Assembly (NCBI GenBank): GCA_025349965.1
Contig: CP075337.1
Location: forward strand, 450,001-482,000
DNA from: Candidatus Saccharimonadota bacterium
Lineage (GTDB): Bacteria > Patescibacteriota > Saccharimonadia > Saccharimonadales > Saccharimonadaceae
DNA length: 32,000 bases
Direction of reading: 5' to 3'
The notes beneath the pieces were generated by a model. It saw only the letters and a list, made by a program, of their open reading frames with translations. It was not told the origin of the DNA and did not search any database. Below, piece by piece: positions 5,291-32,000 of the stretch (position 1 is the stretch's first letter; every line of letters begins with the position of its first letter). Made by a program: the position numbers and the translations under genes.

Positions 5291-6367
5291 ATGAAATTAT
5301 TCTTTGATGCTCGCTGGACGCGCACTGATTATCATGACGGTATTAGCCGATATACCAGCGGGCTTCTTGAGGGCTTTTCACAGAGTAACCTTCCCGTAAC
5401 GGCTATTATCTGTGATAAAAAGCAACTTAAACTTTTGCCAGCCGGAATTGAGTATATTCTTGTTAATCATCCAGTGTCTATTAAAGAGCCCTTCATTGCC
5501 AAAAAGCTAAACAAACTCGGCGCAGATGTTGTTTTCAGCCCACTACAGGTAATGGGCTTCTGGGGACGACGCTATAAACTCATCCTTACCCTTCAAGATG
5601 TAATCTATTATCGGCACCCGAAGCCACCAACGAATCTTCCGTGGTATGTTCGTACAGTTTGGCGGCTATTTCATATGGCGCACTGGCCGCAACGACTTCT
5701 TCTCAATAGGGCTGATTATGTCACCACGGTAAGCAAGACATCAAAAAAATATATTGAAGCAATGCACCTAACTGACCGAGAAATTGGTGTTATCTATAAT
5801 GCTACCAGTATGGCAATCAAGGGTGAGTCCCAGGTCAGCCCCGGGCAAAATACCAAGAACATCCTCTATATGGGTTCATTCATGCCCTACAAGAACGCCG
5901 AAACCCTCATTAAGGCGATGGAATTTCTTCCAGATGAGTTTACACTCCAACTTTTGAGCCGTATTTCACCACAGCGAAAAGCAGAACTTGAGACGTTGAT
6001 ACCTACGGGCAAACGGGTTGTTTTTAGAAACGGCACCTCAGAAGAAGAGTACGCATCGCTCCTTGCAACGGCGCACTGCCTTGCAACTGCCTCGAAGGAG
6101 GAGGGCTTCGGACTCCCCATTACAGAGGCGCAAACCTATCAAACAGCCGTTGTTTGCTCTGACATGGATATTTTCCATGAAGTTGCCGGAAATGGCGCGC
6201 TCTTTTGCGACCCTGATAATCCAAAGGCATTTGCTGATGCAATTACATCACTTACTGACCCCGCGGTACGAACTGACCTTATAGCAAAAGGTGTGGCTCA
6301 TACCGCACAGTTCACTTGGGCAAACTCAGCCAAGGAAATTTGGAAGCTAGCAGAAGCGATACGTTAG
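5291..6367 (+). CDS. Glycosyltransferase, GT4 (GT-B fold) family
   Basis: The C-terminal EEGFGLPITEAQ motif is typical of GT1/GT4 retaining glycosyltransferases. Length is 358 aa. Confidence 0.85.
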   Translation: MKLFFDARWTRTDYHDGISRYTSGLLEGFSQSNLPVTAIICDKKQLKLLPAGIEYILVNHPVSIKEPFIAKKLNKLGADVVFSPLQVMGFWGRRYKLILTLQDVIYYRHPKPPTNLPWYVRTVWRLFHMAHWPQRLLLNRADYVTTVSKTSKKYIEAMHLTDREIGVIYNATSMAIKGESQVSPGQNTKNILYMGSFMPYKNAETLIKAMEFLPDEFTLQLLSRISPQRKAELETLIPTGKRVVFRNGTSEEEYASLLATAHCLATASKEEGFGLPITEAQTYQTAVVCSDMDIFHEVAGNGALFCDPDNPKAFADAITSLTDPAVRTDLIAKGVAHTAQFTWANSAKEIWKLAEAIR

Positions 6368-7086: not shown

Positions 7087-7157
7087 AATACTGCACAACA
7101 GAATGAAGCTGATTTCACCTATTGTGTTGTTCATTTCAACTAAGGATTGGGGACCAA

Positions 7158-9083
7158 TTGCGCAAGCAGAATGGGGTACTCGCGATAGTTCTCGCGGGTA
7201 TGCTCGCAGTCGGCTATCCGACGGTTGCATTTGCCGATGATGGCAGTGCGCCGACGGAAGTCGCCACCGTGAATTCTGAAGAGAGTTCAAGTCTCGTCGA
7301 AGAGACCTCCGCGGCTACGGAAGCTCCGCAGCCGTCCACAGAAGCTCCCGCCGAGGAGCCGGTCAGCGAACCTCAGCCCGAGGTCGCCACTGAAGTACCG
7401 GCACCGCCAGCAGAGCCCGTCGTCGTGGACGAACCTGTCGCAGCTCCCGTGGTTTCTTCGGAACCCGCGGAAGAAGCGACTACGCCCGAAGTTGCACCGG
7501 AGGAGCCGTCCAGCCCACCGGTAGCAGCACCCACCGCAACGCAGATGAAGGCCTCCTCGCCGGCTCCGGCCGCAAAGAAGCCCGACACTGCCAAGAAGGT
7601 ATGGGTCTGTAAGTTCGTTGGCACCCCTGGTGTAAACGAGCGCCTCAAGAGCGGGAAGAATCCCATCTCGGTGTCGGTCAACTCGATTGGCCACAACACC
7701 TGGAATGGTTCCGTTCCCGGTTGGTTCTCCGACGCGCACGATCGCTCATTTGTGATCGCGTACGACACTGGTGGTTCAGGCCCCAGTGCGGCGGACTGTG
7801 AAGGCGTGATCGTCAAGAAGGACGCCTCGGCATCCGTCTCGGTCACGCCGGCCACGTGCGATGCTCCGGCAAAGCTCGTCTACGGCGAGGCTGTCAACGC
7901 TACGCTCAGCGGAACTCCGAACGGTACTGCCGGTCCGGGGAACTACAACGTGACGGCGACCAGTACCTCTGGCCACGTCTTCGCCGATGGAACCTCCAGT
8001 CAGCTGTTCTCCGGAACGCTGGATGGAAAGATTCCGACACAGAACACCAACCCGAATGGCCCGTGCTACGAGCCGCCCGTGTTGGTGAAGGACGCCTCGG
8101 CATCTGTCTCGGTTACCCCGGCCACGTGCGACGCTCCGGCGATGCTCGTGTACGGTGATGTTGCACATGCCTCATTCAGCGGTACCGCCAATGGCACCAC
8201 TGGTCCGGGAAGTTACGACGTCACGGCAACCAGTGATACGGGTCACGCCTTCAGTGATGGAGAATTGACCAAATCGTTCACTGGAACACTGGACGGCAAG
8301 CTCCCGTCGCAAAGTGAGAATCCGGAAGGTTCGTGCTACGAACCGCCCGCTCCCACGCTGGATGCTTCGGCGTCCGTTTCGGTGACACCCGCTACCTGCG
8401 ATGCTCCGGCAACGTTGGTCTACGGCGACATCGAGAATGCCACGTTCAGTGGAACCCCGGACGGTACTACCGGCCCGGGAGACTACAGCGTGGTGGCGAC
8501 GAGTGACGAGGGTCACCTCTTTGCAGATGAGTCATCCACCAAGTCGTTCTCCGGAACACTGGCGGATAAACTCCCCACGCAGAGTGAGGATCCCGAGGGT
8601 TCGTGCTACGAGCCCCCGGTGGTTCTGAAGGATGCCGAGGCTTCGGTCACGGTTACCTTGGCGACCTGTGATGTCCCGGCAAAACTCGTCTACGGCGAGG
8701 CTGTCAACGCTACGTTCGACGGCACCGCTGATGGCACGAACGGCCCTGGCGACTACACCGTGGTTGCTACGGCCAACGAGGGCCATCTCTTCGCCGACGA
8801 AAGTGCGACGCAGACGTTCTCCGGAACGTTGAGCGGCAAGCTTCCGCAGCAGAGCGTAGACCCGGCGAAGCCGTGCTTCAAGGCGCTGGTTCCGCCGTCG
8901 AACCCGCCCATTCCGGGTAACCCCATCCCGCCGACACCCCCGGCCACACCGGTGAGCACTCCTCATGGGCAGCTCGCCGTGACCGGTACCGGTTCAGCAG
9001 ATTACAGCCTGCTGATCGCGCTCGGCCTTGTGACACTCAGCGGGCTGGCCTTCAGCCTCCGTCGTCGCAACAAGGTGTCGTAG
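7158..9083 (+). CDS. Cell-wall-anchored (LAxTG sortase signal) surface protein with a Pro-rich stalk and four 90-aa tandem domains
   Basis: A TTG at 7158 follows AAGGATTGGGG and gives the signal peptide RKQNGVLAIVLAGMLAVGYPTVAFA/DD. The alternative ATG at 7122 gives a poor N-terminus. The C-terminus is LAVTG, then a hydrophobic helix, then RRRNKVS. Composition is GC-rich and GC3-rich, unlike the neighbouring genes. Confidence 0.85.
   Translation: MRKQNGVLAIVLAGMLAVGYPTVAFADDGSAPTEVATVNSEESSSLVEETSAATEAPQPSTEAPAEEPVSEPQPEVATEVPAPPAEPVVVDEPVAAPVVSSEPAEEATTPEVAPEEPSSPPVAAPTATQMKASSPAPAAKKPDTAKKVWVCKFVGTPGVNERLKSGKNPISVSVNSIGHNTWNGSVPGWFSDAHDRSFVIAYDTGGSGPSAADCEGVIVKKDASASVSVTPATCDAPAKLVYGEAVNATLSGTPNGTAGPGNYNVTATSTSGHVFADGTSSQLFSGTLDGKIPTQNTNPNGPCYEPPVLVKDASASVSVTPATCDAPAMLVYGDVAHASFSGTANGTTGPGSYDVTATSDTGHAFSDGELTKSFTGTLDGKLPSQSENPEGSCYEPPAPTLDASASVSVTPATCDAPATLVYGDIENATFSGTPDGTTGPGDYSVVATSDEGHLFADESSTKSFSGTLADKLPTQSEDPEGSCYEPPVVLKDAEASVTVTLATCDVPAKLVYGEAVNATFDGTADGTNGPGDYTVVATANEGHLFADESATQTFSGTLSGKLPQQSVDPAKPCFKALVPPSNPPIPGNPIPPTPPATPVSTPHGQLAVTGTGSADYSLLIALGLVTLSGLAFSLRRRNKVS
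7821..8900 (+). repeat. Four in-phase 270-bp (90-aa) tandem coding repeats
   Basis: Units start at 7821, 8091, 8361 and 8631 (GACGCCTCGG / GATGCTTCGG / GATGCCGAGG). Each encodes D-A-S/E-A-S-V-S/T-V-T-P/L-A-T-C-D-A/V-P-A...G-x-C-Y/F. Confidence 0.9.
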
Positions 9084-16193: not shown

Positions 16194-16286
16194 GTAGTGT
16201 AAGCGATTACAGTAGGTAATTATACAGCTTTACAGCATAATACGCAAGATAGGCTGGCGGCCGGTTGGCAGGTGCGCGCACTTCGG

Positions 16287-16294
16287 TGTACAAT
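16287..16294 (+). promoter_or_regulatory. -10 promoter TG+TACAAT, 6 nt from the ATG (leaderless-type)
   Basis: TGTACAAT is at 16287-16294 and the ATG is at 16301. Confidence 0.5.
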
Positions 16295-16300
16295 ACATTT

Positions 16301-16798
16301 ATGAAACAAAGCGTAAGCGAAATGCTCAATCGAAAACAAAAAGGATTCACCCTTATTGAACTTGTTATCGTTGTCGCTGTCATTATTATTCTTACCTCTA
16401 TCGCGGCGGCAGGTATGACAATTTATTTGAAAGATGCGCGGGATAATGAACGTGCAGGGAAAATGACGATCCTCGTTGAGGCGCTTGAAAGATATTATGA
16501 TCAAAACGGCGAGTATCCAAGTTGTGCAGTCCTATCGGACAGTAATGTCTCAAGTGCAGCTCAGGCACTTGGAGGGATTGATCTACAAACCTTTGTTGCA
16601 CCATCAGCCGAGGAAGGCACAACTAATTCAATTAACTGTAGTTCAGACCAGCCAACAGGCCAACCGGATACGTTTAATTACTCATCAACACCTGCCGTAG
16701 CATCCAACACAGCAATGCGTAATTACACTTTACGATACTGGAGTGAAGGTAATAATAGCGTCGAGACCGTTATGGGACGACGCGGCCGAGAGCCATAA
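16301..16798 (+). CDS. Type IV pilin-like protein (prepilin N-terminal cleavage/methylation domain)
   Basis: The class III signal is MKQSVSEMLNRKQKG/FTLIELVIVVAVIIIL, with G-1, F+1 and E+5. The track start at 16265 is a non-ATG codon. Confidence 0.85.
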   Translation: MKQSVSEMLNRKQKGFTLIELVIVVAVIIILTSIAAAGMTIYLKDARDNERAGKMTILVEALERYYDQNGEYPSCAVLSDSNVSSAAQALGGIDLQTFVAPSAEEGTTNSINCSSDQPTGQPDTFNYSSTPAVASNTAMRNYTLRYWSEGNNSVETVMGRRGREP

Positions 16799-17342: not shown

Positions 17343-20300
17343 ATGAGCTTTGATACCCGCTACAACCGCCTAAACGATGCACAAAAACAAGCTGTCACTA
17401 CTATTGACGGACCTGTCATGATCGTAGCTGGGCCGGGGACGGGAAAAACCGAACTTTTGAGCGTCCGCATTGCCAATATTCTTCAAAAAACCGACACACT
17501 TCCAGAGAATATTCTTTGTCTTACTTTTACTGAAAGCGGGCAGGCAGCCATGCGTGAACGCTTGGTTGGTATTATCGGCAAAGATGCCTACAAAGTAGCG
17601 ATTCACACCTTCCACAGTTTCGGGAGTGAAATCATTAGTCAGAACCGAGAATACTTCTATAATAACGCGCAGTTTGAGCCGGCAGATGAGCTAAAGCAAT
17701 ATGAAATTATCCGCGGAATCTTCGAGGAACTACCCTTTGATAGTCCACTAGCCAGTATGCAGAATGGCGAATACACCCATCTTCGTGATGCGCTCAAAAC
17801 AATTTCCGAGCTCAAGCGAAACAGCGCCCTCACAAGTGACGAGCTTCGTGCCATAATTGAGCAAAATGAAGCATCGCTTGATTTTATCGAACCACTCCTA
17901 CAGCCCATCCTTGAGGCGCGCGTCGGCAAGCAAACCGCCTCGCAACTTGCAGAACTGCTCGTACCAATTACAGGGCATACTCAGGGCCTTGAGCCGCTCT
18001 ACGGTATTATTCCATTCGCACAGGTTTTTCTCAATTCGCTCGCCAATGTTATCCAAGAAGCCGAGACGATCCATCCAACGAAACCTATCTCCGCGTGGAA
18101 AACGCATTGGCTTGAGCGCGATGCAAATAAGCGACTCGTATTCAAGGATCGTAAACGCCTTACAAAGCTCAAAGAGGTTGTTCACATTTATTTCCAATAT
18201 CTTACGCGCATGGAGAAAGCCGCTCTTTACGACTTCGACGATATGATCATGCAAGTAGTGCACGCCGTCGAAACACAACCAGATCTTCGCTACAATCTTC
18301 AAGAAAAATATTTATACATTATGGTTGACGAGTTTCAGGACACCAACCTCGCCCAACTTCGTATTCTTCATAATCTCACTGACAATCCTGTCAACGAAGG
18401 TGCCCCGAATATCCTGGTTGTAGGGGATGACGACCAGGCTATCTACAGCTTCCAAGGTGCCGACATCAGTAATATTCTCACATTCTCAGACACTTACCCA
18501 ACACGGTCGCTCGTCGTACTAACAGAAAACTATCGGTCAGGGGCGGCGATACTGACATCATCCCGCGAAGTCATTACGCAAGGAGGCGATCGTCTTGAAA
18601 CACGCATCCCCGAACTCAATAAACAACTCTCTGCCAACCAAAAAGACGCGGGCTCAATCTCGCTCTGGGAAGCTTCGTCGGTTCAAGCTGAACGACAAGC
18701 AATTATTACCGACATCGGCAAACGTATTGCCGAGGGGGCGCTTGCGTCTAGTATTGCCGTTCTGGCTCGCCATCACGCGGACATAAAAAGCCTCCTTCCG
18801 TACTTCGCGCACGCAGGTATTCCAGTACGATACGAGCACCAAGAGAATGCACTGGACGCAGAACCTATACTTGCATTGACATCAGTCGCAGAGCTTGTTG
18901 TTGCGCTTTCAAATGGAGACCATGACACCGTGGAGGCGCTTCTGCCAACAATCCTCGCGCATCCAGCTTGGAATATACCCGCAACCTCTCTCTGGAAGCT
19001 GAGCCTTACTGCCTATAAGAATCATCAAAATTGGACAGAAATCATGGCGACAACACCAGAATTCGTACCTGTTCTAGAATGGCTTCTTGCGCGTGCTCAA
19101 GAGTCGGCCACTTTTACCCTTGAAGCGAGCATCGACCGCCTCATTGGTGTGCCCGAAGAAGGTGAGTGGGCTCCTTATTACGACTATTTCTTTTCAAGCG
19201 AAAAACTTACCGCTCACCCAAGTCGCTATCTCGAGCACCTTAATGCACTTCGTGTCATTCGCACTCGACTTCGTGAGTATGGCGGAGCTGAAAATCCAAC
19301 GCTAAAGGAATTCGTATCCTTCGTCGCACTCCATCGACAACTGGACATCCGCATCGCTGTCACACAAGACACACTCACGGAAGATGGCGACGCTGTTCAT
19401 CTCATGACTGCACACAAATCAAAGGGGCTTGAGTTTGAAACTGTCTACGTATTCAATGGAGTAGACTCTATTTGGGGACAGAGCGTCCGCTCAAGAAGCA
19501 GCTCCATTGCATATCCGGCCAATCTTCCCCTTACTGCCAATAGTAATACAGCGGATGAACGCATGCGCCTTTATTACGTAGCGATGACCCGTGCAAAGAG
19601 CACCCTCATTCTTACATATAGCACCCTCAATGACACTGACAAGGCTACACTCAAAGCTGATTTTCTTGTTGCACTCGATACACCCATTGACCACATCGAT
19701 CCAAAAGAACAAGGCTCTGTCATGGAAATAAACGAGATTGCCGATTTAGCGTGGCACGGTCAGCGACGGCTTTCCGAACCCACTACCGATTTAGAGGTAC
19801 TTCTTCAGCCAACACTGGCGAATTTCAAGCTAAGCGCCACTTCTCTTAATAATTTCCTCGATGTCACAAGAGGTGGCCCGCGCACCTTCCTTTTGAATAA
19901 TCTCCTCCGCTTTCCAAGCGCTAAAAGTGCTGCTGCAACATACGGAACAGCCGTTCACACCACCATGCAAAAAGCGCACACGCACATTCGAGCAGTGGGC
20001 GAACAGAAGCCACTTGAAGATATCTTGCATGATTTTGAAGTTTCACTAAGAAACAGTCGCCTCTCTAAGAAAGATTTTGAATTTTACCTTGCACAGGGAA
20101 GGGCGCACCTCACCACCTTCATCGAGTCTGGAATTCTTCCTATGACAACAACCCAGAAAGCTGAAGTTAACTTTGCCTCTCAAGGAGTCCACTGTGACGA
20201 TGCGCACATAACAGGGGCACTTGACCTTATCGATATCAACGAAGAGGAAAAAACAATCACTGTTACAGACTATAAGACCGGTAGCCCCGCAAACGCATGG

Positions 20301-20630
20301 GGTAGGGGCACAGAGTATACCAAGGTAAAACTCCATAAGTATCGACAACAGCTCTTGTTTTACAAGTTACTCATAGAGAATTCTGGCCTTTACACGGGAT
20401 ATACGGTAACACATGGTCAGCTGGCTTTTATACAGCCAGATAAGTCGGGCGCGCCCGTAGTCCTCAGTATGGAGTTCTCGGATAAGGAAGAGTTAGAACG
20501 AACACGGAAGCTCATCAATGCAACGTGGAAAAGGATTACCTCGCTTGACCTGCCGGATACTACAGCATACCCCGAGACACTTGAGGGTATTATCGCTTTT
20601 GAAGACACCCTTATTGACGAAGTAGTATAA
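17343..20630 (+). CDS. UvrD/PcrA/AddA-type SF1 helicase fused to a C-terminal PD-(D/E)xK (RecB/Cas4-like) nuclease domain
   Basis: The helicase motifs are Walker A AGPGTGKT, DEFQDTN, VGDDDQAIYSFQGA, ENYRS and VHLMTAHKSKGLEF..YVAMTRAK. The C-terminal nuclease signature is GALDLID...VTDYKTG...KYRQQLLFYKLL. Confidence 0.85.
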   Translation: MSFDTRYNRLNDAQKQAVTTIDGPVMIVAGPGTGKTELLSVRIANILQKTDTLPENILCLTFTESGQAAMRERLVGIIGKDAYKVAIHTFHSFGSEIISQNREYFYNNAQFEPADELKQYEIIRGIFEELPFDSPLASMQNGEYTHLRDALKTISELKRNSALTSDELRAIIEQNEASLDFIEPLLQPILEARVGKQTASQLAELLVPITGHTQGLEPLYGIIPFAQVFLNSLANVIQEAETIHPTKPISAWKTHWLERDANKRLVFKDRKRLTKLKEVVHIYFQYLTRMEKAALYDFDDMIMQVVHAVETQPDLRYNLQEKYLYIMVDEFQDTNLAQLRILHNLTDNPVNEGAPNILVVGDDDQAIYSFQGADISNILTFSDTYPTRSLVVLTENYRSGAAILTSSREVITQGGDRLETRIPELNKQLSANQKDAGSISLWEASSVQAERQAIITDIGKRIAEGALASSIAVLARHHADIKSLLPYFAHAGIPVRYEHQENALDAEPILALTSVAELVVALSNGDHDTVEALLPTILAHPAWNIPATSLWKLSLTAYKNHQNWTEIMATTPEFVPVLEWLLARAQESATFTLEASIDRLIGVPEEGEWAPYYDYFFSSEKLTAHPSRYLEHLNALRVIRTRLREYGGAENPTLKEFVSFVALHRQLDIRIAVTQDTLTEDGDAVHLMTAHKSKGLEFETVYVFNGVDSIWGQSVRSRSSSIAYPANLPLTANSNTADERMRLYYVAMTRAKSTLILTYSTLNDTDKATLKADFLVALDTPIDHIDPKEQGSVMEINEIADLAWHGQRRLSEPTTDLEVLLQPTLANFKLSATSLNNFLDVTRGGPRTFLLNNLLRFPSAKSAAATYGTAVHTTMQKAHTHIRAVGEQKPLEDILHDFEVSLRNSRLSKKDFEFYLAQGRAHLTTFIESGILPMTTTQKAEVNFASQGVHCDDAHITGALDLIDINEEEKTITVTDYKTGSPANAWGRGTEYTKVKLHKYRQQLLFYKLLIENSGLYTGYTVTHGQLAFIQPDKSGAPVVLSMEFSDKEELERTRKLINATWKRITSLDLPDTTAYPETLEGIIAFEDTLIDEVV

Positions 20631-20634
20631 AATG

Positions 20635-20643
20635 TGATATACT
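20635..20643 (+). promoter_or_regulatory. Extended -10 promoter TGATATACT driving the noncoding/GC-rich unit
   Basis: The 9-mer is identical to the dus (21396) and LLM (10407) promoters. It lies 5 nt after the helicase stop. Confidence 0.5.
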
Positions 20644-20649
20644 ATAGAT

Positions 20650-21100
20650 ATAGACACGATGAGTCGCAACAATTGTGTATTTCTTCATCTTGAAAGTGAA
20701 AAAGTGCATAGCTGTTGCGATTCTCTGTCTGTACATTGACAGAGATAGCACTAATGTTCTGATACGTGGCATTGCCCGCCTCCGATCCCCCAAATATTCG
20801 GAGGCTACCCACTTCCCCCTCGGGTAGTATCAGAACGCCGCCCGCTGGGCAAGAAAGGCAATGGTGCGTGGATTCCGAGAAATGACTCTCCGCGCACTTG
20901 TAGCACTCTTGTCCAGCGGGCCCCAAGCTTCCGCCCGTCAAGTGGAAGAAAACAGGGGGGATCTCTCACGGTTAGGCGAAAGAGAGCAGGGGACGACAAA
21001 GGCGTCGTCGTCAGCTCTTCGTCTGAGAGATCCCCCCGCCAAGCTTTATACACCCTCATTTTACGCACATCGCGTAAAATACCTTCAACCGAAAGGAAAT
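20650..21100 (+). ncRNA. Candidate structured RNA or long structured leader, unclassified
   Basis: The helices, in order, are:
- 20722-29 pairing with 20738-45.
- The hairpin at 20778-20805.
- The hairpin at 20805-20827.
- 20840-53 pairing with 20908-21 (14 bp, 1 G-U).
- 20864-71 pairing with 20890-97 (8 bp, 1 G-U).
- The 83-nt rod hairpin at 20955-21037.
- The 9-bp hairpin at 21058-21080.
The G-U pairs are allowed only on the plus-strand transcript. No coding signal is visible. Confidence 0.45.
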
Positions 21101-21101
21101 C

Positions 21102-21260
21102 ATGGGAGGATACCAGGACGAGCTGGCGCGTAAGGCGCGCGAAAAGGCTAACCAGGCCAAGGGTACGCCCGAGTACGACAAGCTCGCTCGAGAGGCAGAT
21201 GCCCGTGAAGCGGACGTCAACGATTCGCTTCGGCGAGCAGGGCAGAACGCGAAGTACTAA
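21102..21260 (+). CDS. Small ORF, 52 aa (MGGYQDELARKAREKANQAKGTPEYDKLAREADAREADVNDSLRRAGQNAKY), below the ORF-track cutoff
   Basis: The ATG is preceded by GAAAGGA at a 4-nt spacing. The product is charged and probably helical. Codons are GC3-rich (AAG, GAG, GAC, CGC), like the surface protein gene. I recognise no family. Confidence 0.4.
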   Translation: MGGYQDELARKAREKANQAKGTPEYDKLAREADAREADVNDSLRRAGQNAKY

Positions 21261-21344
21261 CCTTCGGCCCGAGCGGACGTCATGCGGTACTCATTCCTGA
21301 GTTCGGCTGGCGCAAAACCTGGGACAACAACTGCTATCTCTGTC

Positions 21345-21393
21345 CGCTCAACTCGTTTCACAAAGTATTGTGGCCCGAGTTGAGCGTTTTTTT
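21345..21393 (+). terminator. Rho-independent terminator (two-tier hairpin plus T7)
   Basis: An 11-bp stem pairs CGCTCAACTCG (21345-55) with CGAGTTGAGCG (21376-86). An inner 5-bp stem pairs CACAA with TTGTG. It is followed by TTTTTTT (21387-93). Confidence 0.8.
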
Positions 21394-21395
21394 AA

Positions 21396-21404
21396 TGATA
21401 TACT
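21396..21404 (+). promoter_or_regulatory. Extended -10 promoter TGATATACT for dus
   Basis: It lies 10 nt upstream of the ATG at 21415. Confidence 0.5.
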
Positions 21405-21414
21405 AGGTAAAGTA

Positions 21415-22386
21415 ATGGATAACTTCTGGAACAATCTCCCAAAACCGTTTTTTATTCTTGCCCCGATGGAGGCGGTGACTGACGTTGTCTTTCGTCACGT
21501 CGTCATGAAGGCGGGCCGTCCTGACATTTTCTTTACCGAGTTCACTAACACTGCAAGCTTCTGTAGCCCAAAGGGGATTCATAGCACTCGCGGACGTCTT
21601 GCATTTACTGAAGATGAACACCCGATGGTGGCACAAATTTGGGGCGCTCGCCCTGAACATTTCCGCGAGATGGCACATGGCCTTAAAGAGCTTGGCTTCA
21701 AAGGCATTGATGTAAATATGGGCTGCCCAGATAAGTCCGTCGTAAAGAGCGGGGGAGGCAGTGGCCTTATTCGCACCCCGGAACTGGCTGCTGAAATTGT
21801 TGCCGCAACCAAAGAAGCTGGACTCCCCGTAAGCGTTAAGACACGCCTTGGTGATGTTCGCACCGACGAATGGCGCGACTGGCTGACACACATCCTCAAA
21901 CAGGATGTCGTTAACCTCACTATCCACCTCCGCACCCGCAAAGAGATGAGTAAAGTGGAAGCGCACTATGAACTTATTCCTGAAATTAAAGCGCTCCGTG
22001 ATGAAATTGCCCCGCAAACACTCCTTACTATTAACGGTGACATTCGTGACCGTAAGCACGGACTTGAACTAGCAGAGCAGTATGGTATTGACGGCATCAT
22101 GATTGGTCGAGGTATATTCAAAGACCCGTTTGCATTCACAGAAGGACAGTGGAAATCATTATCTGCCGAAGCGCAGCAAAAAGCGCTATTTGAGCTTCTT
22201 CACTTACACCTCGACCTGTTCGACAAATACACCAAAGAGCTCGAACATCGACCCTATGACGTACTAAAACGCTTTTTTAAAGTATACCTTCATAGCTTTC
22301 CAGGCGCCGCTGAACTTCGCGACAAAATGATGCACACCAAGAACACTGATCAAGCACGCGAAGCGCTCAGTCTCTTTGCTCAATAA
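21415..22386 (+). CDS. dus: tRNA-dihydrouridine synthase
   Basis: Motifs are [22 protein letters not shown] and TIHLRT. The ATG at 21415 is preferred because the track start at 21370 lies inside the upstream terminator hairpin. Confidence 0.9.
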
Positions 22387-22398
22387 GCACGCCGCTTA

Positions 22399-22407
22399 TG
22401 CTATAAT
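22399..22407 (+). promoter_or_regulatory. Consensus extended -10 promoter TGCTATAAT, 7 nt from the ATG (leaderless-type)
   Basis: TGCTATAAT is at 22399-22407 and the ATG is at 22415. Confidence 0.55.
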
Positions 22408-22414
22408 CAGTCCA

Positions 22415-23044
22415 ATGATCTTGAAAAAAGAAAAGCTGGTTGGGTTTACAATTGTAGAGCTTCTTATCGTGATAGTAGTTATAGCCATCTTGGCGACCAT
22501 TACCGTCGTCGCCTATGAGGGCATTTCCGTAAAAGCAAGAAATGCCTCAACACTCCATGCTATTAAAACATACGAGAAAGCACTTAAATCGTACGCATCT
22601 CAACATGATGCGTACCCCGATTTCTGGGGGTCGGTGTGTCTTGGCGAGGGCTACCTCGATAGAAATAATGATTCCCTAGGCGACTGCGGTGCCGAAGATT
22701 ACCCAGCACTAGAGAGCACGGCCTTTAACGCTAGCCTTCGCACTATTGTTTCGTCGCTTCCGCCGGTAAGCACTAAAAGTATCTCTGCGCCAGGTGGGAA
22801 TATAGGGTGGGTGGGCGCCTTTATTATGCGCTGGGACGACATCACCTTTAATGGGCATACCGCACCGTATACAATTGCTTATATTCTAGAAGGGTCAGCT
22901 CAACAGTGTGGCCACGGCGCTACAATGGAGACCATCCCTGGCCAGAATTGGCCGACCACCCGAACAAGTACCACTGGGTATTCATGGACAGACAGCAGGT
23001 CAACCGTCTGCCATATTTCGCTTCCAAACCCCTCTCAGCTATAA
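22415..23044 (+). CDS. Type IV pilin-like protein (prepilin N-terminal methylation domain)
   Basis: The class III signal is MILKKEKLVG/FTIVELLIVIVVIAILATI, followed by a Cys-containing C-terminal globular part. Confidence 0.85.
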   Translation: MILKKEKLVGFTIVELLIVIVVIAILATITVVAYEGISVKARNASTLHAIKTYEKALKSYASQHDAYPDFWGSVCLGEGYLDRNNDSLGDCGAEDYPALESTAFNASLRTIVSSLPPVSTKSISAPGGNIGWVGAFIMRWDDITFNGHTAPYTIAYILEGSAQQCGHGATMETIPGQNWPTTRTSTTGYSWTDSRSTVCHISLPNPSQL

Positions 23045-29802: not shown

Positions 29803-32000
29803 CTAGAAGTAGCGACGTGGGCCGACGAGGAGGTAGGAGGGGAGGTAGTTTTGAGAGGGGACGTTGAGTGTGGCAACGGGGGAGGATTTGTTGGTCGTTG
29901 TGCCGTCGCCAAGCTGGCCGGAGGTGCCAGCTCCCCAGCAGTAGGCCTTGTTGTCGGAGGCAAGGGCGCAGGTGTGGCTACCACCGGCTGTGAGTTGGCC
30001 GATGGCGACACCGTCTGGAATGGCACCTTGGAGAACAGCGACAGGGGAGGACTTGTTGGTCATTGTGCCGTCGCCAAGCTGGCTGGAAGTGCCAAGACCC
30101 CAACAATAGGCTTTATTGTCGGAGGCAAGGGCGCAGGTGTGGCTACCACCGGCTGTGAGTTGGCGGATGGTAGTGCCGGCCGGAATGGCTCCCTGGAGAA
30201 CAGCGACAGGGGAGGACTTACTGACCGTAGTGCCGTCGCCAAGCTGGCTGGAGGTGCCAGCTCCCCAGCAGTAGGCCTTGTTGTCGGAGGCAAGGGCGCA
30301 GGTGTGGCTAGCACCAGGCGCAAGCTGGCGGATGGTAGTGCCGGCTGGAATGGCCCCCTGGAGAACAGCAACAGGGGAGGATTTGTTGGTCGTTGTGCCG
30401 TCGCCAAGCTGGCCGGAGGTGCCAGCCCCCCAGCAGTAGGCCTTGTTGTCGGAGGCAAGGGCGCAGGTGTGGTTGGTACCCGTTGCAAGCTGGCGGATGG
30501 TAGTGCCAGCCGGAATGGCACCCTGGAGAACAGCAACAGGGGAGGATTTACTGACCGTTGTGCCGTCGCCAAGCTGGCTGGAGGTGCCAAGACCCCAGCA
30601 GTAGGCCTTGTTGTCGGAGGCAAGGGCGCAGGTGTGAAGATTACCGTTAATAACCTGCCGGATAGTAACACCGGCTGGAATGGCCCCCTGGAGAACGGCG
30701 ACAGGGGAGGATTTGTTGGCCGCTGTGCCGTCGCCAAGCTGGCTGTAGGTACCATTTCCCCAGCAGTAGGCCTTGTTGTCGGAGGCAAGGGCGCAGCTGT
30801 GGCTACCACCGGCCGTGAGTTGGCGGATGGTGGCACCGTCTGGAATGGCACCCTGGAGAACAGCGACAGGGGAGGATTTGTTGGCCGTTATGTCAGCTCC
30901 CCAGCAGTAGGCCTTGTTGTCGGAGGCGAGGGTGCAGGTGTGGCTATTACCGGCTGTGAGTTGGCGGATGGTAGTGCCAGCCGGAATGGCACCCTGGAGA
31001 ACAGCAACAGGGGAGGATTTACTGACCGTTGTGCCGTCACCGAGTTGACCATTTGTGTTTGTACCCCAGCAATAGGCTTTGCTGTCGGAGGCGAGGGTAC
31101 AGGTGTAGTTAGAGCCGATGGTAACTTGCCGAAAGGATACACTAGTCAAAACTTCAGCCGGATAGAATTTACTAGTAGTTGTACCGTCGCCAAGCTGGCC
31201 AACACTGTTATACCCCCAGCAATAGGCTTTATTGTTAGCTGTAAGGGCGCAAGTATGATTGATGCCGGGTATAATGCGACGAATCGTAACTCCGGCTGGG
31301 ATTTCACCCTGAGAGACGGCGACGGGAGAGAATTTGTCATCTGCGGTACCGTTACCAAGTCGACCGTTTGCATTCTGCCCCCAGCAATAAGCTTTGTTAT
31401 CGGAAGCGAGGGTACAGATGTAGCCAACGCCAGCAGTAAGCTGCCGAATGGTGGCACCGGCTGGGATTTCACCCTGAGAGACGGCGACGGGAGAGAATTT
31501 ATTGACAGTCGTGCCGTCGCCGAGCTGACCTGATGTATTCTGCCCCCAGCAATACGCCCTGTTGTCGGAGGCGAGGGCGCAGGTATTATGCCCCCCTGCT
31601 GTGATTTGCCGAATCGCAACTCCGGACGGGATAGCCCCCTGGAAGACAGCAACAGGAGTAACTCTATTGGTACTAATACTACTACCGCCGGCCTGTCCGT
31701 AGGCGTTATACCCCCAGCAGTAGACTTTATTATCGGAGGTAAGTGCACAGGTGTGGCTAGAGCCGGCTACAAGTTGCCGAATCGTAACTCCGGCTGGGAT
31801 TTCACCCTGAGAGACGGCGACAGGGGAACTCTTTTGAATAGTCGTACCGTCACCTAGCTGACCGTAATTGCTATACCCCCAGCAATAGATTTTATTATCT
31901 GAAGCGAGGACACAAGTATAGTTAACCCCGGTTACAAGTTGCCGAATCGTAACTCCGGCTGGGATTTCACCCTGAGAGACGGCGACAGGGGAACTCTTTT
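29803..32000 (-). CDS. RCC1-repeat (beta-propeller blade) protein, N-terminus beyond the window edge
   Basis: I checked every triplet from 31150 to 32000 by hand. The frame has no stop and no ATG/GTG/TTG, and it keeps encoding blades (..SPVAVSQGEIPAGVTIRQL..HTCAL.SDNK.YCWG.N..GQLGDGT..). The track start at 31149 (TTG) is therefore an artefact. At least 13 blades are present. Confidence 0.85.
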   Translation of the reverse strand, partial: KSSPVAVSQGEIPAGVTIRQLVTGVNYTCVLASDNKIYCWGYSNYGQLGDGTTIQKSSPVAVSQGEIPAGVTIRQLVAGSSHTCALTSDNKVYCWGYNAYGQAGGSSISTNRVTPVAVFQGAIPSGVAIRQITAGGHNTCALASDNRAYCWGQNTSGQLGDGTTVNKFSPVAVSQGEIPAGATIRQLTAGVGYICTLASDNKAYCWGQNANGRLGNGTADDKFSPVAVSQGEIPAGVTIRRIIPGINHTCALTANNKAYCWGYNSVGQLGDGTTTSKFYPAEVLTSVSFRQVTIGSNYTCTLASDSKAYCWGTNTNGQLGDGTTVSKSSPVAVLQGAIPAGTTIRQLTAGNSHTCTLASDNKAYCWGADITANKSSPVAVLQGAIPDGATIRQLTAGGSHSCALASDNKAYCWGNGTYSQLGDGTAANKSSPVAVLQGAIPAGVTIRQVINGNLHTCALASDNKAYCWGLGTSSQLGDGTTVSKSSPVAVLQGAIPAGTTIRQLATGTNHTCALASDNKAYCWGAGTSGQLGDGTTTNKSSPVAVLQGAIPAGTTIRQLAPGASHTCALASDNKAYCWGAGTSSQLGDGTTVSKSSPVAVLQGAIPAGTTIRQLTAGGSHTCALASDNKAYCWGLGTSSQLGDGTMTNKSSPVAVLQGAIPDGVAIGQLTAGGSHTCALASDNKAYCWGAGTSGQLGDGTTTNKSSPVATLNVPSQNYLPSYLLVGPRRYF
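29870..32000 (-). repeat. Tandem 165-bp (55-aa) coding repeats
   Basis: The period was measured from TAGGC anchors at 29942, 30107 and 30272, which are 165 nt apart. Eight near-identical units span about 29870-31100 and five or more diverged units lie upstream. Confidence 0.9.

Follow-up and report, generated by a model that had tools for sequence, protein, structure and literature searches.

Saccharibacteria have genomes of ~0.8-1 Mb with little non-coding DNA, yet a structured region of 460-1100 nt is kept at one locus, between a helicase gene and dus, the gene for tRNA-dihydrouridine synthase, in the 21 genomes measured. What does this region make, and what is its structure for? The question was addressed in a stretch of 32,000 nucleotides (nt) of CP075337, the genome of TM7i, a cultivated episymbiont of Leucobacter (PMC9894109). 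This stretch, positions 450,001 to 482,000 of the forward strand, is called the window below, and all coordinates count from its first letter. A preliminary description, made from the letters alone, had seen here a GC-rich, densely folded RNA and offered three explanations for it: a new large non-coding RNA, a dual-function RNA, or the regulatory RNA of a small acquired module. As judged from the sequence, the interval 20649-21393 is a single plus-strand transcription unit, whose predicted transcript of ~745 nt ends just before the dus promoter. This transcript is predicted to be the messenger RNA (mRNA) for a 52-amino-acid (aa) hydrophilic two-helix protein inside a conserved RNA frame. In our model the frame consists of a 5' hairpin (P1), a 13-base-pair (bp) closing helix enclosing ~580 nt, and a terminator hairpin that abuts this helix.

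Transcription unit and genomic position

The unit is flanked upstream by the gene of a 1095-aa UvrD/PDDEXK helicase (17343-20630), which stops at 20630, and downstream by dus (21415-22386), with its ATG at 21415. The preliminary description had given the unit its own promoter and its own strong terminator, and both were borne out. The extended -10 element TGATATACT, noted there as a 9-mer shared with two other positions, is accompanied by a -35 element, and the promoter as a whole scored 10/12 matches plus the TG extension. The same 9-mer is repeated at 21396 and 10407, giving 3 copies in the window against 0.16 expected. Among 61 homologous elements an extended -10 (mostly TGCTATAAT) was found in 39, located 48-123 nt 5' of the closing-helix 5' strand. 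At the other end, the terminator stem pairs 21345-55 with 21376-86 (11/11 paired), with an inner stem of 21358-63 and 21368-73 and a T7 tract at 21387-93. A simple terminator scan overlooked this terminator because its loop is longer than 8 nt.

To place the unit among its relatives, 80 genome loci were collected by a Dus search and 80 further metagenome loci by a search with the helicase C-terminus; homologous loci are given below by L number. The helicase gene precedes dus in 23 Saccharibacteria genome loci, and the gap between them is 460-2400 nt in the 21 measured. Since this order of helicase, gap and dus is conserved, the unit is not an insertion. The gap was not empty in the relatives, which the preliminary description had proposed to compare, and held the structured element there as well. 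In total, the element was found after the helicase gene, usually before dus, in 66 related loci. The locus is single-copy, syntenic and vertically inherited, and is not on mobile DNA. This synteny contradicts the earlier view of the unit as compositionally foreign or a small acquired module. The G+C contents (GC) counted by hand for that view were exact, at 0.533 (20941-21000), 0.633 (21121-21180) and 0.433 (5291-5350), but the last sample, taken as native, was unrepresentative, as the window has 49.4 % and the unit 53.1 %. In 21 relatives the intergenic GC ranged from 4 points below to 8 above that of the locus and was mostly above it, which fits a stem-rich RNA and not an import.

The position of the unit also raises the possibility that the structure serves a neighbouring gene, either as a cis-regulatory leader of dus or as the structured 3' untranslated region of the helicase mRNA. 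No terminator stands between the helicase stop codon and P1, and the -35 element lies inside the helicase open reading frame (ORF). Moreover, in six genomes (L023, L157, L158, L164, L171 and L193) the U tract is absent and the 3' hairpin reaches or runs into the dus start codon, so that dus must be co-transcribed with the element there. In the window and most relatives, by contrast, dus follows a U tract and has a separate extended -10 ahead of it. Primary-sequence conservation is confined to short, sparse segments, unlike that of a ligand-sensing leader, and the conserved ORFs inside the element would be left unexplained. A dus-leader reading is therefore plausible in the genomes that lack the U tract only; it does not apply to the window, whose dus has a promoter of its own, and as an explanation of the element the leader or untranslated region is improbable. 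In the same six genomes dus has no recognisable ribosome-binding site and is perhaps translationally coupled to the element.

The conserved RNA frame

The plus strand of 20645-21100 folds with -206 kcal/mol (z = -12.2, with 0/100 shuffles as good), compared with -186.5 kcal/mol (z = -6.9) for the minus strand, and the dense non-random fold described earlier was thus recovered. The two helices to which most weight had been given, one of 14 bp (20840-53/20908-21) and one of 8 bp (20864-71/20890-97), are fully paired (14/14 and 8/8), each with one G-U pair. A 13-bp helix (20738-50/21332-44) had been overlooked, and the 52-aa ORF at 21102-21260 had been given no weight. In the minimum free energy (MFE) fold of the full-length 745-nt RNA (-340 kcal/mol), this 13-bp closing helix forms without any constraint.

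Comparison of the homologous loci showed compensatory substitutions that maintain P1, the closing helix and the 3' hairpin alike, in dozens of Saccharibacteria genomes and metagenome contigs. P1 begins a few nt or less from the transcript start expected from the -10 element, and a P1-like hairpin is predicted at the same place in most homologues. Its consensus, obtained with RNAalifold from an 18-sequence subset, shows compensatory changes in 19 of 22 pairs.

The closing helix was revealed by a blastn comparison of the unit with the window, which returned a 13-nt inverted repeat, GACAGAGATAGCA (20738-50) and TGCTATCTCTGTC (21332-44). The gap in relatives is flanked by the same pair of repeats in matched variants, such as GACAGGAATAG/CTATTCCTGTC, GACAGAGAGAG/CTCTCTCTGTC and GATAGTGATAG/CTATCACTATC, and further GTCAGAGATAG/CTATCTCTGAC and GACAGATGCAG/CTGCATCTGTC. 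When the helix was taken as 14 bp over 51 distinct homologues, 94.3 % of the cells were paired, and both sides had changed in 12/14 pairs (95 cells). None of 500 shuffles was as good, and slid controls reached 28-48 % pairing. As the first detection of the helix had required complementarity, the test was repeated without any motif: the 3' hairpin was located by a covariance model, R1, and the 12 nt just upstream of it were searched for a complement. A perfect 12/12 complement was found 275-645 nt upstream in 23/32 distinct loci, compared with 0/192 for neighbouring 12-mers.

The 3' hairpin has a consensus of 17 pairs over 36 sequences, 15 of them compensatory, with a nearly invariant upper stem UCAYRA/UYGUGR. 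Among its cells are 80 G-U against 19 A-C, and this excess, together with the promoter, fixes the plus strand. The preliminary description had argued for the plus strand from the G-U pairs of its two local helices; the direction was right, and the argument is better carried by the 3' hairpin. Consistently, R1 scored 60.5 bits on the plus and 28.1 bits on the minus strand of the window, and 40-68 bits on the plus strand across sources, where the minus strand gave at most 31. The plus-strand matches are the window and the 66 related loci; each source has a single match except L044, which has two. Elsewhere in the 32 kb of the window R1 matched nothing, and it found no copy in dus loci of Firmicutes and other phyla or in more distant rumen or oral Saccharibacteria loci.

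Could the repeat instead act at the DNA level, as the arms of an invertible or recombining cassette? This would explain both the co-varying arms and the exchanged cargo described below. The repeat is almost purely Watson-Crick (G-U 10 vs A-C 15), its core sequence is conserved, and the family of the enclosed ORF varies between genomes. On the other hand, every recognisable ORF is co-oriented with the promoter, and the few GGAGG-led ORFs on the minus strand lie in frames that also carry a plus-strand family ORF. No recombinase was seen among the called neighbours (helicase, dus, an acyltransferase and ATP synthase subunits), and the repeat sits between two hairpins with RNA-type covariation and a strand-specific G-U excess. 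We consider such a cassette highly improbable. G-U pairs in the closing helix had been tried as proof of the strand and were dropped after this count; with no G-U excess, the closing helix alone does not tell the strand, and its RNA nature rests on its context.

Several further observations concern the frame. The segment CUCUGUC (20723-29), in the 3' strand of the P1 base, can pair with GACAGAG (20738-44) across the loop UGUACAUU. Since the P1 base and the closing helix are near-duplicates, such a local alternative hairpin could compete with both; the alternative pairing is not kept in the GACAGGAAUAG clade. In some genomes, such as L161 (3185-3860), a single promoter is followed by two frames in tandem, and each frame has a closing helix and an ORF of its own; L240/L241 (2820-3220) also belong to the loci with two frames or two ORFs. 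A transfer RNA (tRNA) gene lies inside the frame of L077 (3215-3290, between arms at 3017-30 and 3610-23), and in L183 and L229 a tRNA gene stands directly after the closing-helix 3' strand, in place of the 3' hairpin. Further tRNA genes were noted in L044 (3346-3418) and L008 (3844-3913). With tRNA genes in or abutting the frame, the element would be co-transcribed with tRNAs in some genomes.

Leader domains, the small ORF and its exchanged cargo

Within the frame, the leader folds into the domains D1 to D5 (Table 1). Independent folds of L151, L002 and L001 gave the same domain order despite different stem sequences. In all, this leader organisation, as D1-D6, is predicted for four relatives. 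The D1 closing stem also has compensatory changes in these three loci, and a counterpart of D2 with different stem sequences is predicted in each of them, as judged by eye. A four-sequence consensus fold of D3 and D4 has 28 pairs, 10 of them compensatory, and the apical motif of D4 was found again in 9 homologues of different clades and ORF families. After the ORF, the GGACGYC hairpin and an AAAACAGRA run are frequent among homologues, while others have a perfect G+C hairpin there. Blastn detected almost no interior similarity even among close relatives. Taken together, the sequence comparisons indicate that the interior turns over fast while the frame stays, and that the family of the enclosed small protein changes too.

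A riboswitch or other ligand-sensing leader was considered for the interior and rejected: hardly any interior sequence can be aligned even in close relatives, the short and sparse conservation is unlike the ligand pocket of a riboswitch, and the downstream ORF families are unrelated. A pairing of the CGACAAnGGCGUCG loop with the post-ORF GGACGYC was also tried. Judged by eye, 6-7 bp are possible in the window, L001, L002, L004 and L050, and the pairing was dropped as it is not kept in L006 and L012 and both partners lie in local stems.

The leader is rich in C runs. Across clades, runs of at least four C in the first 200 nt inside the frame numbered 130, against 72 +/- 7 in shuffles, and 46 % of the C runs were unpaired in MFE folds, compared with 9 % of the G runs. 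C-rich hairpin loops of RNAIII of Staphylococcus aureus bind Shine-Dalgarno regions. The RNA might accordingly be a dual-function riboregulator of the RNAIII type, in which the C-rich loops of D1 pair with the G-rich ribosome-binding sites of other mRNAs, or titrate away an RNA-binding protein, and the ORF is a passenger. The enrichment and the predicted exposure of the C runs suit this idea, as does a frame far more conserved than its cargo, which switches family between genomes. The likeness to RNAIII (and also to SR1 and SgrS) extends to a size of ~500-750 nt, a promoter and terminator of its own, numerous hairpins, domains closed by long-range helices, C-rich loops, here predicted to be unpaired, and an embedded small ORF. 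It differs from RNAIII in having no sequence or Rfam relationship to it and no known targets, in the position of its ORF in the 3' half, and in the exchange of the ORF family while the frame is kept. The passenger role fits poorly with purifying selection on the ORF within each family and with the presence of an ORF with a strong ribosome-binding site in nearly every frame. Furthermore, CCCCC occurs 72 times and the exact anti-Shine-Dalgarno CCUCC 23 times, no target can be named, and the loop accessibility is a prediction. Such a riboregulator is, in our judgement, unlikely, although "dual-function RNA" is the one of the three explanations first offered that can still be upheld.

The 52-aa ORF (KI440_02505, annotated as a hypothetical protein) encodes a product identical to a record from Ca. 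Saccharibacteria bacterium TM7i. Between the window and its homologues in L151 (77 % identical) and L152 (67 %), third codon positions take 27/42 and 30/51 of the substitutions, and this bias indicates a real coding sequence under purifying selection. AlphaFold2 models the protein as two helices (pLDDT, predicted local distance difference test, 89.6), and its grand average of hydropathy (GRAVY) is -1.45. Among 5.8 billion, the family of the window ORF has 25 clusters, a second family 22 and a zinc-ribbon family one. The contexts looked up for the first two families were all directly after the helicase gene, and those of the window family read helicase-ORF-dus wherever the contig reaches that far.

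These results bear on the reading of the element as nothing but a large non-coding RNA, or as a foreign module acquired recently. For it speak the lack of a conserved ORF in the first 450 nt, a GC above that of the flanks and the lack of an Rfam match. At gathering score Rfam returned only a tRNA-Gln (16122-93) in the whole window, which upheld the earlier statement that no RNA family is recognised. At E up to 10, the region 20500-21500 gave only chance-level microRNA and small nucleolar RNA matches far below gathering, and on 16, then 15 related loci Rfam found only tRNAs; ARAGORN found no transfer-messenger RNA. The element resembles OLE, ROOL, GOLLD and the raiA motif as a long, G+C-enriched, covariation-supported intergenic structure in a compact genome, sometimes beside tRNA genes. 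The Rfam models of these RNAs match neither the window (E up to 10) nor 15 relatives (E up to 0.05), and they are non-coding, whereas the frame here almost always encloses a translatable small ORF. With the ORF under purifying selection, the proposal of a large non-coding RNA no longer stands; the deep synteny and the raised intergenic GC of most relatives argue in the same direction against import, and no copy was found in viral contigs. We find this reading hardly credible in either form. A phage origin had been considered, as a 16-mer of the 5' strand matched 70 viral contigs, and was rejected: this is about the number expected by chance on a rough estimate, and none had the partner strand.

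In homologues the frame almost always encloses a small ORF of 43-87 aa behind a strong ribosome-binding site GGAGGUGA, and the stop codon usually stands 40-70 nt before the closing-helix 3' strand. In most of them this site, as (U)CACC-N-GGAGGUGA, is displayed on a hairpin of 4-6 bp formed with an upstream (U)CACC(U). UUG or GUG is the start codon of many small ORFs behind a perfect GGAGGUGA, for example in L004, L006, L007, L166, L167 and L193, and public gene callers largely miss these ORFs. The enclosed proteins belong to at least six unrelated orphan families, among them the helical family of the window, a Cys/His-rich family (CxGCCPY...CSTC...TGH), a zinc ribbon (ICINPxC...CPHC), a family with a DnaJ-like CxxCxGxG pair, one with the pattern "...P..R(T/S)..EQ.LV...VKN.DH.A...R.HG", and others. 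Two ORFs within one frame were found in L163 and L167, and the loci with several frames or ORFs include another family of 65-70 aa (...KCE...LANAK...SYG..R). Searches of Pfam, PHROGs, NCBIfam and PADLOC with ten representative small proteins gave only sub-threshold zinc-finger-type matches, the best of which, at 16.7 bits where the cutoff is 65, was DnaJ CXXCXGXG / anti-TRAP RtpA. No match was found in the PDB by sequence profile or by Foldseek with the confident model.

A highly structured small-ORF mRNA with long-distance pairing between its 5' and 3' parts recalls type I toxin mRNAs such as hok of plasmid R1 and aapA1 of Helicobacter pylori. These are compact, very stable mRNAs for proteins of ~30-50 aa with a 5'-3' interaction, and alternative local pairings are possible near their 5' end (PMC5416894). 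If the unit were of this type, the 5'-3' pairing would block translation of a toxin until the 3' end is processed, and an antisense RNA would serve as antitoxin. The architecture described for AapA1 and hok (PMC5416894) is the same, the ORF size of 43-87 aa would suit, and CUCUGUC at 20723-29 could form the alternative local pairing with the closing-helix 5' strand. The cargo does not suit, as all 16 representative products are hydrophilic (GRAVY -0.13 to -1.45, best 15-residue window at most 0.71) without a membrane helix, and the window product is predicted to be a soluble helical hairpin. No conserved antisense extended -10 was found: of 61 elements, 39 have a plus-strand promoter of this type and a single one has an antisense match, at chance level; the scan covered promoters of the extended -10 type and does not exclude other types. 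The closing helix contains no ribosome-binding site, and the site is predicted to be more accessible than average. In further contrast to hok and aapA1, the cargo family varies, no antisense gene is evident, the RNA is 2-3x longer with a multi-domain leader of 350-450 nt, and the single-copy, vertically inherited locus keeps a fixed chromosomal position in one bacterial order and is not on mobile DNA. A type I toxin is thus very unlikely.

Proposed end locking, feature coordinates and surroundings

Based on these results, we favour, with a probability of roughly 0.55, a model in which the unit is an end-locked, stabilised and post-transcriptionally tuned mRNA platform for a small non-toxin protein. 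The frame would leave neither the 5' nor the 3' end free, which would shield it from end-dependent ribonucleases (RNases) and make the RNA long-lived. A 5'-3' long-distance interaction is likewise held to explain the high transcript stability of AapA1 and hok mRNAs (PMC5416894). The ribosome-binding site would be shown on the loop of a small hairpin within an otherwise paired molecule and, with the stop codon 40-70 nt before the closing helix, the ORF could be translated while the frame stays unopened. Translation is probably tuned by the leader, with its C-rich loops predicted to be exposed; a protein partner, or contact of the leader with the G-rich ribosome-binding site, might mediate this. 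In L183 and L229, where a tRNA follows the 3' strand, the 3' end produced by RNase P cleavage would still lie hidden in the closing helix; end protection would then be independent of the terminator, which fits end protection as the common purpose.

The leaders of ompA and ermC carry 5'-terminal stabiliser hairpins, and bacterial mRNAs may also have protective 3' hairpins. The unit resembles them in that one hairpin starts at or close to +1 and another, stable one lies at the 3' end, both of which should stop end-dependent RNases; it differs in that its ends are also tied by a conserved helix, and that the whole is kept as a unit in the window and 66 loci. The general kind, a structured small-ORF RNA with end-to-end pairing, is already known. 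What is new is how large the RNA is, how deeply its frame is conserved and that the enclosed cargo is exchanged. In the literature searched, no structured RNA of Saccharibacteria has been described.

Control of translation by hiding the ribosome-binding site was also considered and set aside, as partition-function accessibilities did not back it: the mean unpaired probability of the site was 0.50, against 0.35 for the whole RNA, over 38 frames. Four points weigh against the end-locked platform. First, pseudoknots are not covered by MFE and partition-function predictions, and a loop-loop contact might yet mask the ribosome-binding site. Second, as counted above, the closing helix is almost purely Watson-Crick, and wobble pairs do not attest its RNA nature. 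Third, a TM7i transcriptome has been reported and is tabulated for pilus genes only (PMC9894109). Fourth, stability by itself does not account for the conserved sequence of the closing helix (GACAGAGAUAG), for the CGACAAnGGCGUCG loop and the upper stem of the 3' hairpin, or for the enrichment of unpaired C runs, and these features point to a specific partner or a second function.

The last point leads to a more tentative reading, which we consider possible and not probable, in which the frame itself is the selected entity. It would be an undescribed class of large structured Saccharibacteria RNA, a fixed and highly expressed "cage" in which small genes are born, overprinted and replaced in place, with a function of its own beyond stabilising a message. 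A protein or RNA partner would then recognise the GACAGAGAUAG helix, the UCAYAA/UUGUGR stem and the C-rich loops. Its basis is the occurrence of at least six orphan families, some of them zinc-binding, in this slot only, sometimes two per frame or in tandem frames.

If true, the end-locked platform would add a large RNA structure backed by compensatory changes that lies outside Rfam, and a natural end-to-end locked bacterial mRNA with a non-toxin cargo. The swapping of unrelated orphan small proteins in an unchanged frame offers a tractable case for the origin and replacement of small genes, and flags small ORFs of the kind missed by gene callers. As TM7i can be cultivated with its Leucobacter host, the predictions are directly testable.

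Table 1. Predicted features of the unit, with positions in the window
Feature	Position	Strand	Remarks
Promoter	20614-20643	+	-35 TTGACG at 20614-20619, inside the last helicase codons; 18-nt spacer; extended -10 TGATATACT at 20635-20643
P1, 5'-terminal hairpin	20649-20733	+	~34 bp, 85 nt; at or beside the predicted transcript start; window fold
Closing helix, 5' strand	20738-20750	+	GACAGAGAUAGCA; 13/13 paired with 21332-21344
D1, three-way junction	20756-20836	+	closed by GUUCUGAUAC/GUAUCAGAAC; two unpaired CCCCC loops at 20787-91 and 20815-19
D2, long hairpin	20840-20921	+	contains the 14-bp and 8-bp helices of the preliminary description
D3, small hairpin	20928-20948	+	CUUCCGC...GUGGAAG; window fold
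D4, long hairpin	20955-21037	+	apical motif CGAC-AAAGGC-GUCG at 20994-21007
D5, hairpin	21058-21080	+	window fold
Ribosome-binding-site hairpin	21082-21096	+	AAAGGAAA; window fold
ORF KI440_02505	21102-21260	+	52 aa; "hypothetical protein"; hydrophilic helical hairpin
Post-ORF spacer	21262-21331	+	GGACGUC-containing hairpin at 21278-21312; A-rich run AAAACCUGGGA; 71 nt from stop codon to closing helix
Closing helix, 3' strand	21332-21344	+	UGCUAUCUCUGUC; partner of 20738-20750
3' hairpin/intrinsic terminator	21345-21393	+	directly abuts the closing helix; upper stem UCACAA/UUGUGG is conserved; ends in a U7 tail

Some observations concern the surroundings of the unit. Saccharibacteria Dus proteins (window 21415-22386; loci L014-L053) are 59-66 % identical to Dus of Bacillaceae, Paenibacillus and Enterococcus, and some other Saccharibacteria Dus are less close, at 52-59 %. 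That Dus is closer to Firmicutes than to some Saccharibacteria suggests an old lateral transfer between Firmicutes and this lineage. A 653-aa ORF at 7122-9083 (+) lies on a sharp G+C island, with 60-66 % over 7201-9000 against ~49 % in the window; Pfam gave nothing for it at E up to 0.001, and it is a better candidate for foreign DNA than the unit. A second G+C-rich stretch, 29803-31149 (-), has ~60 % and a plus-strand GC skew of +0.19 to +0.32, and encodes a 448-aa RCC1-repeat (beta-propeller) protein; a 560-aa plus-strand ORF that overlaps this gene has no Pfam match and is probably spurious. Type IV pilin-like N-termini were seen in two small proteins, encoded at 16265-16798 (+) and 22376-23044 (+). 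The first has the N_methyl motif in Pfam; the second reads ...GFTIVELLIVIVVIAILA... and has no Pfam match. Both fit the pilus-dependent lifestyle reported for TM7i.

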